Part shown: positions 22,004 through 27,768 of the stretch, in pieces | Layout: each line of letters begins with the position of its first letter | Position numbering within the stretch: position 1 is the first letter of the stretch | Assembly (NCBI GenBank): GCA_963811105.1 | Contig: CAWEPZ010000002.1 | Location: 384,001-448,000, forward strand | Origin: Candidatus Bathyarchaeota archaeon | GTDB lineage: Archaea; Thermoproteota; Bathyarchaeia; Bathyarchaeales; Bathycorpusculaceae | Direction of reading: 5' to 3' | DNA length: 64,000 nucleotides | The notes under the pieces: generated by a model | What the model was told of the DNA's origin: nothing | What the model saw: the letters and a program-made list of their open reading frames with translations, nothing else | Databases searched by the model: none | Program-made: the position numbers and the translations under genes

Positions 22004-23285
22004 CTAGATAATTGCTCCCTTAAGATAGGTAGACGAAGCTTCAGTAACCTTAACATTCAAAGTTTTGCCCATAAGGTTATTTGTGCTTCTTACGACTATG
22101 GGCTTGTAAGCTAAGTTGCGTCCTACCCAAGATCCTTCAACCTTCCCTTTCTCATCAACCAGCACCTCGCCAACCCAGCCGACCCAACGCTTATTGCACT
22201 CTAGGGAAATCTGCTTAACTAACCCTGCAGCAATGGTGCTTCTCCGCTTAGTCTCATCTCGCTCAACCAGACCAACATTTATTTGCGCTGCAGTCGTTTT
22301 GGGTCTTGCAAAAAACTTAGAAACATTGACGACGTCAGGCTTCACCTCCTCTAAGAACTTAAGTGTATTCTCAAAAGCTTCTACAGTTTCGCCTGGAAAA
22401 CCAACAATGATGTCAGTCGCAAGGGTCAACAGGGGAAACTCATTCCTAAAAGCTGAAACAATACTCTTGAAATCCTCTGAACCGTAAAATCTATGCATTC
22501 GCTTTAGTATTTCGTCATCACCACTTTGTACTGGCAAATGCAGAAACTTGAAAACCTTTTTGCTCCTGAAAGCGTCAATCAACTTAACTTGCATATCGGT
22601 TACCATATTGGGCGTCATCATGCCTACTCTAATCCTAAAGTCCCCAACTAAACCAACAAGCATCATCAAGGAGCTCTGCAAGGTTACTACGGATGTCTCT
22701 TCCGTAACAAGCGGTGTCTTGAGAAGTAATCCAAAACTCCTTTGCTCCAGCGGCAAGATCGCTCTCTACTCGGTCTGCAATTTCTTTGATGTTGTAGCTT
22801 CTCAGGTGACCACGAGCAAAAACTACACAGCAGTAGGCGCAGGAGCCCAAACAACCGTAATTGATCGGAACCACACTGATGACTGGGTTAGATTTGATTC
22901 TGGGTAAGTCCAGCTTAGGTTTTGCATTCGCTACCAATTCAATAACTTTTTCGCCTCTCCAAACGCGAGAAACGACATCAACTATTTCTTTTCCAACTGA
23001 AGGGCCCACTGCCCCATCGAAATGTACTTCGTTTACCAACCGCTCAAAACTAATCATCGGTAAACAACCCGCGACAATGAGCTTTTTTCCTTTTGGCGTA
23101 TGCTTTAGGGCGTTAATTATGCGGTTTTCTGTTGGACCTTTAACGGCGCAGGTATTGTAGATTATTACGTCGGCCGTAGCTTCTGAAGTTGTCAGCTGGA
23201 ACCCACCTTGGGCAAGGCAGCCTGATAAGACTTCGCTATCAGCGCTATTAGCCGAACAGCCAAAGCTACGAACGAAAACCTTCAA
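22004..23285 (-). CDS. Archaeal tRNA methylthiotransferase (MiaB/MtaB-like radical SAM + TRAM), 1-nt insertion near 22667
   Basis: GCxxN, NTCAV, GCL; CLGSCAYC; HLPVQSG; IIVGFPGET; TRAM tail. Confidence 0.92.
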
Positions 23286-23499: not shown

Positions 23500-23655
23500 A
23501 TGAAACTAATTACTCTTTATTTGCCTGAAACGTATATAAAAGCTTTGGACCAGCTGGTTGACGAGCGGTTCTATCCAAACCGCGCCGAAGCCATCAGAGT
23601 CGCAATTCGAGACCTTATCAGCGCTGAAGTCTGGAGGAGAAAAGGTGTTGACTAA
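23500..23655 (+). CDS. cdrS: CdrS-like ribbon-helix-helix cell-division regulator (51 aa, not in ORF track)
   Basis: MKLITLYLPETYIKALDQLVDERFYPNRAEAIRVAIRDLISAEVW; YPNRxEAIRxAIRDL signature. Confidence 0.82.
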   Translation: MKLITLYLPETYIKALDQLVDERFYPNRAEAIRVAIRDLISAEVWRRKGVD

Positions 23656-23938
23656 GAATTTACATGACGACGGCCTAAAATCGCCATTAGAAATCGAAGA
23701 TACGAAGGTTGCGAGGGTTCCAAAAACCATTGATCACTCCATGATAATTGGTGAATCCAGTGTTATTCGGAAACCTAAAACTAAAATGAATAACAGGATG
23801 GTTAAATCTAAAATGCCGGTTAAAAAAATATGCAGACTGGAAAAAGCAACACAGCACCTCTATGACCTTGAAGATGCGCATGGCCCAGAAAAACCATTAA
23901 ACATAGACTTCGGTCTCTACCAAATGGAAGACTATTAA
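23648..23938 (+). CDS. Hypothetical protein coupled to cdrS; C-terminus resembles an FtsZ tail
   Basis: TTG start overlaps the cdrS stop, with GGAGG RBS; ends LYDLEDAHGPEKPLNIDFGLYQMEDY, followed by a T-tract. Confidence 0.6.
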   Translation: MTKNLHDDGLKSPLEIEDTKVARVPKTIDHSMIIGESSVIRKPKTKMNNRMVKSKMPVKKICRLEKATQHLYDLEDAHGPEKPLNIDFGLYQMEDY

Positions 23939-24017
23939 CATTCTTTTTTCTTTTTAACTAACTTTTGTGATTTCCCCTCCAGAAAAGCTATTATTCTCAA
24001 AAAATCCTTTAAGATCT

Positions 24018-24728
24018 ATGAGCGTTATACTTACCCAATTAAGAGAAGAACTCAAAACTAATACAGACCCGCAAACGCAAAAAAGTTTTCAGCGCTTTTT
24101 CAAAGAACAAGTAAAGTATTATGGCGTTAAAACTGACGTTGTAGGTAAAATAGCTAAAAAATATTGGAAAGAAGTAAAAAACTTGGATAAAGAAGCAATT
24201 TTCACGCTTTGTGAAGAGCTTTACCGTTCCGATTATACAGAGGAAGCCTTTGTAGTGGCGTTTTGGCTGCCAAACTATATTGACAACCTTCAACTAAACG
24301 ATTTGTCAATGTTCAAAACCTGGATTGAACGGTACATTAACAATTGGGCAAAATGCGACGGCTTGTGCAATCACACTATTGGCGACTTAATCCAGAAATA
24401 CCCAAAAGCCTTAGGCGAATTGAAAAGCTGGGCTAAAAGCAAAAACCGTTGGCTTAAACGGGCTGCGGCTGTTTCGCTTATTGTTCCAGCAAAAAAAGGC
24501 TGTTTTCTGCAAGATGCTTTCGAAATAAGCGACACATTGCTAATGGACGAGGATGATATGGTTCAGAAAGGTTATGGTTGGCTGCTTAAAGAGGAGAGCC
24601 GGCTGCATCAGAGGGAAGTTTTCGACTACGTTTTTAGAAACCGCAATGTTATGCCTCGAACTGCTCTTCGGTATGCTATTGAGTTGATGCCTAAAGAACT
24701 TAAATCTCAGGCGATGAAGAAAGCTTAG
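24018..24728 (+). CDS. DNA alkylation repair protein (AlkD-like)
   Basis: NNWAKCD, W.KS.NRWLKRAA, EDDMVQKGYGWLLKE, RTALRYAIE. Confidence 0.88.
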   Translation: MSVILTQLREELKTNTDPQTQKSFQRFFKEQVKYYGVKTDVVGKIAKKYWKEVKNLDKEAIFTLCEELYRSDYTEEAFVVAFWLPNYIDNLQLNDLSMFKTWIERYINNWAKCDGLCNHTIGDLIQKYPKALGELKSWAKSKNRWLKRAAAVSLIVPAKKGCFLQDAFEISDTLLMDEDDMVQKGYGWLLKEESRLHQREVFDYVFRNRNVMPRTALRYAIELMPKELKSQAMKKA

Positions 24729-27139: not shown

Positions 27140-27217
27140 GGGTCCGTGGCGCAGTACGGATAGCGCGTCAGCCTTCTAAGCTGAAAGTCATGGGTTCAAA
27201 TCCCATCGGACCCGCCA
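27140..27217 (+). tRNA. tRNA-Arg (anticodon TCT), intronless, encoded CCA
   Basis: GGGTCCG/CGGACCC acceptor; GCGC D-stem; TCAGC-CTTCTAA-GCTGA anticodon arm; ATGGG-TTCAAAT-CCCAT T-arm; GCCA end. Confidence 0.97.
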
Positions 27218-27304
27218 ACTCTAGCGCGAAAGATATACTGCTTTTTTCTTTTTTTAAGAGTTTTTTAAGTGTTTTAGCTGCGTCTATGCAGGAGGCTTCT
27301 CTAG

Positions 27305-27547
27305 TTGCCTAGAGACTCTAAGCTTTTAGCTCAGTTGATGGAGGATCCAGTTTTTGAGTGTGTTGAGACGTTTTGCTGCCAAAGGCGCCGCGACGTAACA
27401 CTTGATTTATCTGTATCCAGGAGGCCTTTGGGCAGTATTGTTTCTGGGGTTCCGGTGTCCTGCAGTTGTGAGGCGAGTTGCAGCAAAGGCATTTTTTGTT
27501 TGCTGAAGGTTAACCGGATTACTATGGGCAGGAGAACGAATCGGTGA
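27305..27547 (+). CDS. Small Cys-rich hypothetical protein
   Basis: GGAGG RBS; CC, CSC and C clusters; stop overlaps the next start. Confidence 0.55.
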   Translation: MPRDSKLLAQLMEDPVFECVETFCCQRRRDVTLDLSVSRRPLGSIVSGVPVSCSCEASCSKGIFCLLKVNRITMGRRTNR

Positions 27548-27768
27548 AGCAAATCTGTCTCTATGTCCCGAGGGTCTGCATTAACCTTCTAGATGAGTTA
27601 GTTGATTTGGGTTTTTACCCTAAAAGAGCTGAAGCGATCAGGCTTGCCATTCGTACTTTGCTTTCTAAGCACGGCAAGTTTATGGTGCAAACTGACTATA
27701 AACCGCCTGAAAAAAACGTGTTATCGGCCGTTGAAAAGCGCCTGGAGGCTTCTATTAATGACGATTGA
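27544..27768 (+). CDS. Second CdrS-like RHH protein (element-borne)
   Basis: MKQICLYVP..LDELVDLGFYPKRAEAIRLAIRTLL aligns without gaps to 23500-23655. Confidence 0.8.
   Translation: MKQICLYVPRVCINLLDELVDLGFYPKRAEAIRLAIRTLLSKHGKFMVQTDYKPPEKNVLSAVEKRLEASINDD

Follow-up and report, generated by a model that had tools for sequence, protein, structure and literature searches.

The stretch of DNA analysed here (the window, 64,000 nucleotides of contig CAWEPZ010000002.1 from a Candidatus Bathyarchaeota archaeon) carries on its forward strand a small regulatory gene, cdrS, overlapped by a second short open reading frame (ORF) for which we use the term FtsZ stub. cdrS (23500–23655) encodes a ribbon-helix-helix (RHH) protein of 51 amino acids (aa). 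The stub (23648–23938) encodes 96 aa from a TTG start (23648–23650) placed 8 nucleotides (nt) before the end of the cdrS stop codon TAA (23653–23655), and terminates with a stop codon at 23936–23938. A GGAGG Shine-Dalgarno-like site, located by script at 23633–23637 on the same strand within the 3′ end of cdrS, lies 10 nt ahead of the TTG and this GAGG...TTG geometry recurs in loci of the genus and ahead of the full-length ftsZ of sister genera. After the stub stop comes a T-rich tract (23944–23955, T-runs at 23944–23949 and 23951–23955) which, from its sequence, is likely an archaeal terminator. A scan for bacterial-type hairpins and sigma-70 signals, which is not applicable to archaea, found no hairpin and gave nothing of use. 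An earlier note on this DNA had described an ORF at TTG 23648 that is translationally coupled to cdrS, with a GGAGG ribosome-binding site and a T-tract, and all of these coordinates hold. Divergent from cdrS on the reverse strand is a gene for a MiaB-like radical-SAM methylthiotransferase (22004–23285; Pfam UPF0004, Radical_SAM and TRAM), which serves as the reference point for synteny at the cdrS-ftsZ locus.

The cdrS product is an RHH protein on the basis of its Pfam match (RHH_1, PF01402, E 1.5e-7, 31.6 bits against a cut-off of 20.5). The top NCBIfam match is CdrS itself (NF058555, E 4.1e-11), scoring 42.7 bits where the cut-off of this Halobacteria-specific model is 100. The protein is identical or nearly so across 20 loci of the genus, and near-identical proteins are encoded directly upstream of full-length ftsZ in the 14 loci of relatives that were read. 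Darnell et al. (2020) reported the cdrS-ftsZ2 locus to be conserved across archaea, with Bathyarchaeota among those checked (PMC7439475). In Halobacteria and other archaea the small RHH gene is directly upstream of, and co-transcribed with, ftsZ (PMC7439475), an arrangement that relatives in this order match exactly.

What, then, is the protein encoded in the place of FtsZ? The translation lacks the tubulin G-box GGGTG(S/T)G, as the earlier note had observed, and no family in Pfam or NCBIfam was matched. Pfam SIN1 RBD, at E 0.062, was under the cut-off and was disregarded. Profile comparison gives a clear relationship. Using hhalign, the alignment of stubs from the genus compared with that of 13 cdrS-linked FtsZ sequences places stub residues 24–96 on FtsZ residues 296–369 with Prob 98.3% and E 2.5e-14. 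When stubs of four more genera are included residues 12–96 align with FtsZ residues 281–369, over 84 columns, with Prob 98.9% and E 2.6e-17. The aligned region comprises helix H10, strands S9 and S10, the linker and the tail. Stubs from genera g21, g22 and g28 are still FtsZ-like in the stretch of residues 12–63, for example in the segments ...GKLKVTLV... and ...LDEANKVVESTVELV.... The segment SMIIGES (SMVIGGS in relatives) is assigned to S9 of the C-terminal domain on three grounds, namely the profile alignment, its conserved distance from the tail and the clearer stubs of these same three genera; an alternative assignment, to strand S1 beside the G-box, was rejected.

Residues 68 or 69 to 96 share 55–61% sequence identity with the ends of 373–374-aa frames in two genomes, G028 and G038, from another family of the order. 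Both frames are cdrS-linked FtsZ (TIGR00065, 401 bits for that of G028). The G028 frame ends in ...LYDLDQYGEPEKPLNIDLGLYQLENF and the window stub in ...LYDLEDAHGPEKPLNIDFGLYQMEDY, precisely the string quoted in the earlier note, the suggestion there being that this tail resembles the C-terminus of Bathyarchaeia FtsZ. That suggestion is borne out. The motifs L(Y/F)(D/N)(L/M)(E/D) and E(K/R)xLx(I/V)(D/E)LxL(Y/D)Q(L/M/I)E are common to the stub and most of the 13 cdrS-linked FtsZ sequences; in the stub tail two LY(D/Q)(L/M)E motifs stand on either side of PEKxLNID. Full-length FtsZ proteins encountered when whole genomes were searched are matched by the stub profile at their C-terminal ends, and the long matches found in a search of representative proteins are also at or near their C-termini. 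The link between tail and FtsZ is drawn from the whole-genome searches because a protein-database search for longer proteins sharing the tail gave 41 candidates, none with E≤10, a match of 30 residues being too short to reach significance among 5.8 billion sequences.

Gene order tells the same story. In relatives the order is the divergent MiaB-like gene, cdrS and then full-length ftsZ, of 366–372 aa from the likely start, and this was seen in seven other genera of the same family (g17, g19, g20 and g24–g27) and in seven other families of the order. The full-length ftsZ genes of six sister genera use the same TTG and the same 8-nt overlap with the cdrS stop. Following the TTG a [DE]xxLK-like pattern is present in both stub and full-length FtsZ, though this was judged by eye and is unscored, and the first three stub codons are also constrained by the cdrS reading frame.

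Homology detected by hhalign and the orthologous position together indicate common descent, and the stub is almost certainly an FtsZ remnant by origin. It is a derivative of FtsZ and not a member of the functional FtsZ family. No GTP-binding domain is present, given that alignment to FtsZ begins only at FtsZ residue ~281, nor is there a complete C-terminal (T7 loop / FtsZ_C) domain, just degenerate H10-S9-S10 remnants. Judged by sequence comparison, an in-frame loss of approximately FtsZ residues 12–280 gave rise to the stub, taking with it the GTPase domain, the T7 loop and most of the C-terminal domain. Unlike the cdrS-ftsZ2 operon, therefore, the ftsZ partner at this locus can provide no GTPase and no filament. 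What remains can be divided into three parts. Residues 1–11 (23648–23680) appear, by eye and without a score, to be the remnant of the FtsZ N-terminal extension (M-T-K...L-K). Residues 12–63 (23681–23836) hold the degenerate H10 and S9-S10 remnants followed by the linker, and are basic in this genus. Residues 64–96 (23837–23935) form the acidic, conserved C-terminal tail, the presumed SepF-binding peptide. The ORF had been described as basic; this applies to the middle (residues 24–63, pI 10.8), the tail itself being acidic (pI 4.3). The earlier proposal of an FtsZ reduced to its tail is right with respect to origin but understates what is kept, since some 11 N-terminal residues and remnants of H10 and S9-S10 survive also.

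Published synteny makes the ancestral gene a candidate FtsZ2 orthologue, Pende et al. noting that ftsZ2 occurs frequently with parD (PMC8178401). Searches against the Protein Data Bank (PDB) and NCBIfam return just the name 'FtsZ', with the cdrS-linked form scoring 401 bits and a second paralogue, described below, 311 bits, and do not separate FtsZ1 from FtsZ2; the best PDB match was M. jannaschii FtsZ1.

Loss of the FtsZ body is not confined to one lineage. A 65-aa stub coupled to cdrS is found in family f9 (genome G032), and in family f7 there are stubs of 63 aa in genus g16, 80 aa in G143 and ~62 aa in G101. None of them has the H10-S9-S10 remnant, which sets their build apart from that of the f1 stubs, and at the end of each is a tail resembling the FtsZ tail of its own lineage. 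By the profile, genus g16 would have SepF with neither FtsZ nor stub (a stub in none of 19 genomes); the cdrS loci of three of them (G050, G125 and G040) show the 63-aa stub complete with tail. Canonical cdrS-linked FtsZ also occurs in some genera of both f1 and f7. Provided that the families are natural groups, the deletions took place on at least two occasions. In family f6 a different outcome is seen. The cdrS-linked FtsZ copies are open frames of 331–385 aa in which the G-box is destroyed in all four read (G039, G061, G096 and G120); the Tubulin model gives a weak score or none, whilst the C-terminal tail motif is intact. These four genomes have SepF and no other tubulin-domain match. From their sequences the f6 copies look like GTPase-dead pseudo-FtsZ. 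The tail is kept in all stub builds and in all copies without a G-box that were examined, which suggests that the tail is the constrained element and that the GTPase is dispensable here.

We now consider how the cell that carries the stub might divide. The genome is assembled in 15 contigs and is 96.65% complete. The FtsZ_C profile PF12327 had no match in this genome, PF00091 a single match of 26 bits within an 867-aa Tubulin_2 protein, and tblastn with both of the FtsZ paralogues of relatives detected only the stub tail. Canonical FtsZ is absent from this assembly. SepF is present (PF04472, 43.1 bits against a cut-off of 27; contig C11, locus L002 1228–1773) as a 181-aa ORF with the N-terminal sequence MKFALFRKPKK, a long linker rich in proline, glutamate and glutamine, and a core at residues 82–166. 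The N-terminus, amphipathic in appearance, is a putative membrane-targeting helix. Two matches to CdvA, an ESCRT-III (Snf7) gene and PRC-domain genes are also present. A published survey reports the Cdv system for Bathyarchaeia (PMC9723716) and the cell plausibly divides by Cdv/ESCRT-III. The CdvA-like matches are at C13:87034–87892 and C1:13144–13467, and one CdvA-like gene is directly beside the ESCRT-III gene. The second CdvA-like domain is in a 632-aa open frame, possibly one of the glutamate-rich CdvA-like fusions that have been described from Bathyarchaea (PMC11188069).

The Tubulin_2 protein is the only member of the tubulin superfamily encoded in the genome. The gene (C2:630102–632705, which is outside the window; locus L073 3103–5706) specifies an N-terminal PF13809 domain (E 4.3e-10) with a GGGTGSG motif and a long C-terminal part. 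It is preceded by the gene for a 368-aa ORF, or 328 aa when counted from an ATG. In a survey of 151 genomes of the order the Tubulin_2 protein was found in 13, seven of which, this one included, belong to the genus. The proteins are 70–91% identical across two families, a patchy but conserved distribution that suggests transfer or strong constraint. With an occurrence of just 13 genomes the protein was rejected as a general replacement for FtsZ. Relatives may encode a second FtsZ paralogue that is not linked to cdrS (TIGR00065, 311 bits) and has a C-terminus without the LYxLE tail. It too is patchy, occurring in genera g18, g20 and g24, in some members of f7 and in only three of 12 sampled genomes of the window's genus, and it is absent from this genome.

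Thirty of the 151 genomes have a short stub that the profile detects, leaving aside G150 where masked bases break the frame; having been made with a profile of the window's genus, such counts are lower bounds (the g16 form is missed). SepF is present in 28 of the 30. A tubulin-domain match of at least 78 bits occurs in only six, and in each case is the second, unlinked paralogue. The SepF core is as conserved in the genus without FtsZ as in relatives that have it, with 30 invariant columns in 17 sequences. The linker varies in length, being approximately 35–90 residues and rich in proline, glutamate and glutamine in the window's genus and approximately 10–25 residues in other genera, and at the C-terminus of most SepF proteins in the order is a conserved ...P-T-A-A motif.

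A complex of two copies of SepF residues 80–170 and one of stub residues 55–96 was modelled, with alignments supplied for all chains. The median ipSAE is 0.82 (0.82, 0.83 and 0.82 in the three runs) compared to 0.57 for the best control, and passes a mark that was reached by 116 of 157 solved complexes and by two of 215 mismatched pairs. The runs share at least 85% of contacts and the partner pLDDT is at least 62. In the model stub residues 88–93 contact SepF residues 144–148, 130, 134, 152–153 and 161 of one protomer, and stub residues 72–73 contact residue 145 of the other, with LYDLE and LYQME each seated in one SepF groove. By reference to the published SepF topology (PMC8178401) the groove predicted to be contacted is assigned to the η1 turn, α2 and β3. 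Many of the modelled SepF contact residues (88, 89, 112, 127, 130, 144–150 and 161–163) are invariant in all 17 sequences.

The structure of the M. smithii complex of SepF with the FtsZ C-terminal domain (PDB code 7AL2) has an acidic, hydrophobic peptide in the groove formed by α2, β3 and η1 (PMC8178401). The modelled stub tail uses the corresponding SepF residues, and since a similar complex has been solved, the pass may reflect likeness and is weak evidence, not proof. The NID of the stub tail may be set beside the near-invariant GID of Pende et al. (PMC8178401), an equivalence that is presumptive. There are differences. The stub peptide is not attached to a polymer, and in the model one tail spans both protomers by way of two repeated motifs whereas in M. 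smithii there is one peptide per monomer (PMC8178401).

These observations lead us to the following proposal. What the internal deletion left of ftsZ is a start that overlaps the cdrS stop, some 11 N-terminal residues, an eroded H10-S9-S10 segment, a linker and the tail. With the GTPase domain removed the product cannot bind GTP or form a filament. It would be made together with the division regulator CdrS and act through its tail as a ligand of SepF, the usual membrane anchor of FtsZ, with one LY(D/Q)(L/M)E motif filling each of the FtsZ-tail grooves in a single SepF dimer. On this view the stub is a SepF adaptor or regulator, and not a filament, in a cell that probably divides by Cdv/ESCRT-III. 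Tail homology, the retention and conservation of SepF and the modelled complex make it probable, in our view, that the stub is a non-polymerizing SepF ligand co-expressed with CdrS. The pair may regulate the assembly of SepF at the membrane or may link SepF to a partner of the N-terminal or middle part of the stub. A broader generalization, which we advance tentatively as a possibility, is that the cdrS-linked FtsZ has repeatedly given up a cytoskeletal role, through point erosion of the G-box (one family) or through differing internal deletions (at least two or three others), whereas the tail, its coupling to CdrS and SepF were retained each time, and that the contact between SepF and tail is a self-sufficient module independent of the polymer. 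SepF would then serve as membrane effector and the tail, its supply timed by CdrS, as switch or adaptor, beside or within Cdv/ESCRT division, the stub being a natural 'minimal FtsZ' in which what the tail does is uncoupled from the forming of filaments.

Several points count against the stub being a SepF ligand. The binding is seen in a structure model, one control for which reached 0.57, and the calibration of the ipSAE mark was made without user-supplied alignments or the set-up of two plus one chains. Two of the 30 stub genomes, G133 (94% complete) and G168 (95%), have no SepF that could be found. Neither of the two genomes of genus g11 has SepF, yet the FtsZ of one, G166, keeps the tail motif; the tail is therefore not strictly tied to the presence of SepF. 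A reciprocal inspection for decay of the tail where SepF is missing gave no clean signal, the other g11 genome, G034, having a tail without the terminal motif. The absence of FtsZ is read from an assembly that is fragmented and, as stated, not quite complete. The N-terminal and middle parts of the stub are also under selection (dN/dS approximately 0.25–0.35), which a role purely as a SepF peptide does not explain. With respect to co-expression, a 414-nt RNA-Seq metatranscriptome contig that differs at 22 positions covers 23597–24009, beginning within cdrS, taking in the whole stub and extending beyond its stop codon, and a second covers cdrS, a hint of co-transcription from a library that may hold DNA and a contig that derives from a related strain, without information on strand or transcript ends.

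The main rival explanation is that the tail is functional but has a different partner, such as a PRC-barrel CdpB-like protein, CdvA/ESCRT-III, the 867-aa Tubulin_2 protein or CdrS, with SepF being kept for unrelated reasons. Purifying selection on the whole stub and not the tail alone would fit, as would the retention of the tail motif in G166. Genes for CdvA, Snf7 and PRC-domain proteins are at hand in the genome, and the products of translationally coupled neighbours often interact. Against this, the tail is homologous to FtsZ tails, for which SepF is the sole archaeal partner documented (PMC8178401), SepF accompanies the stub in 28 of the 30 stub genomes, and the model, which passes its controls, places the tail in the canonical groove. 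The distribution of Tubulin_2 means that it cannot be a general partner. We judge a partner other than SepF to be unlikely.

Is the stub maintained or decaying? The earlier note had offered either a retained adaptor or decoy or else a relic of FtsZ loss. Over 24 sequences of the genus, and with the three codons that overlap cdrS left out, dN/dS was calculated by the Nei-Gojobori method. The frame is open in all 24 although synonymous sites are saturated (pooled pS 0.69). For the tail (residues 64–96) dN/dS is 0.09 over all pairs and 0.16 in the 21 closest pairs; the corresponding values for the middle (residues 24–63) are 0.26 and 0.35. For the N-terminal residues 4–23 the ratio is not computable over all pairs and is 0.26 in the closest. 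Overall, residues 4–96 give 0.16–0.26. Of the 16 invariant columns in the alignment 13 are within residues 64–96 and the other three are residues 10, 11 and 20. Folded alone the stub gives pLDDT 61.7 and pTM 0.18, with no fold modelled. It is predicted to be largely disordered, which fits a carrier of short linear motifs. The stub is very probably maintained by purifying selection, and 'retained adaptor or decoy' is a better description than 'decaying relic': a relic in origin it is, but retained.

The contrary explanation, of a decaying, non-functional leftover kept by the 5′ overlap with cdrS or by regulatory or terminator signals at the cdrS 3′ end, is disfavoured and we consider it very unlikely. 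The overlap with cdrS, which is confined to the first three codons, the predicted disorder and the poor conservation of the middle part between genera are compatible with decay. Against it, the low dN/dS of the tail applies 190–290 nt away from cdrS and the ratio is well under one in every part. The frame remains open despite the saturation noted above, and is open also in the stub loci read from five further f1 genera. The family has 130 representatives at 50% identity, and stubs of different build as well as GTPase-dead copies of full length have each held on to the tail independently.

The stub is widespread. At E≤0.01, 342 proteins (clusters at 90% identity) of 52–168 aa match it, nearly all of them 95–105 aa; they are unnamed or 'hypothetical', one carrying the label Bathyarchaeia. 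The representatives just mentioned are clusters at 50% identity retrieved from 1.84 billion proteins with a profile of 24 sequences from the genus, and almost all are of 47–153 aa. Within the genus the stub is present in all 24 other genomes searched and overlaps the near-invariant cdrS in all 20 loci read. Contigs from a DNA run of another study cover 23544–23672, across the junction of cdrS and stub, with no differences and 23674–24100 with two. That a normal ftsZ collapsed by mis-assembly or binning is scarcely credible even though the genome is in 15 contigs and no single read-derived contig spans the whole 801-nt stretch, because the same short gene is seen in independent genomes, of which G003 and G014 are assembled as single contigs, in metagenome proteins that number in the hundreds and are independent of one another, and in those contigs. 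The two outcomes that the earlier note held would undo its interpretation, a tail unlike FtsZ or an assembly deletion within a normal gene, were not what was found.

Both FtsZ and SepF are believed to be as old as the last universal common ancestor. Pende et al. state that SepF does not occur in genomes that lack FtsZ (PMC8178401), a rule broken by this genome and by many of its relatives. The stub suggests a definite explanation, open to test, in that the part of FtsZ which would touch SepF was never lost. Truncated FtsZ paralogues are described in Hyphomicrobiales, for example FtsZ1 and FtsZ3 of Agrobacterium, which are maintained and thought to tune division rather than build the ring (PMC13732431). 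These apparently keep the GTPase domain and act beside an essential full-length FtsZ (PMC13732431); the stub is the converse, with the tail kept, the GTPase gone and no full-length FtsZ remaining in the genome. The non-canonical FtsZ-like proteins of TACK archaea, FtsZL1/Tubulin_2, are likewise tubulin-family genes reported to have diversified away from ring formation (PMC9723716), but they keep a GTPase-like domain (PMC9723716) whereas the stub keeps none and is invisible to any tubulin model. Domain surveys would score such a genome as 'FtsZ absent', and annotation says hypothetical, so that presence and absence tables for TACK archaea miss the stub. A full-text search, which extended neither to subscription-only papers nor to supplementary tables (e.g. 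Supplementary Data 1 of Pende et al.), found no published account of an FtsZ reduced to its tail, or of SepF retained in the absence of FtsZ, in Bathyarchaeia. The stub represents a natural dissection of FtsZ. It poses the question of what the contact between tail and SepF does in the absence of a filament, and shows how a lineage with both FtsZ and Cdv systems dismantles one of them.

Two further features of the window deserve mention. The MiaB-like gene is here split into two overlapping ORFs, 22635–23285 (216 aa) and 22004–22756 (250 aa), where in three other loci, next to cdrS-ftsZ or cdrS-stub, it is one ORF of 440–477 aa. Either a frameshift has made it a pseudogene or the sequence is in error. 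A second CdrS-like RHH gene (27544–27768, 74 aa; best NCBIfam match CdrS, 36 bits, under the cut-off) is just downstream of a tRNA-Arg(TCT) gene (27140–27217) and is followed by several small ORFs of no known family. The region 27140–27768 may be an integrated element with a CdrS-like regulator of its own.

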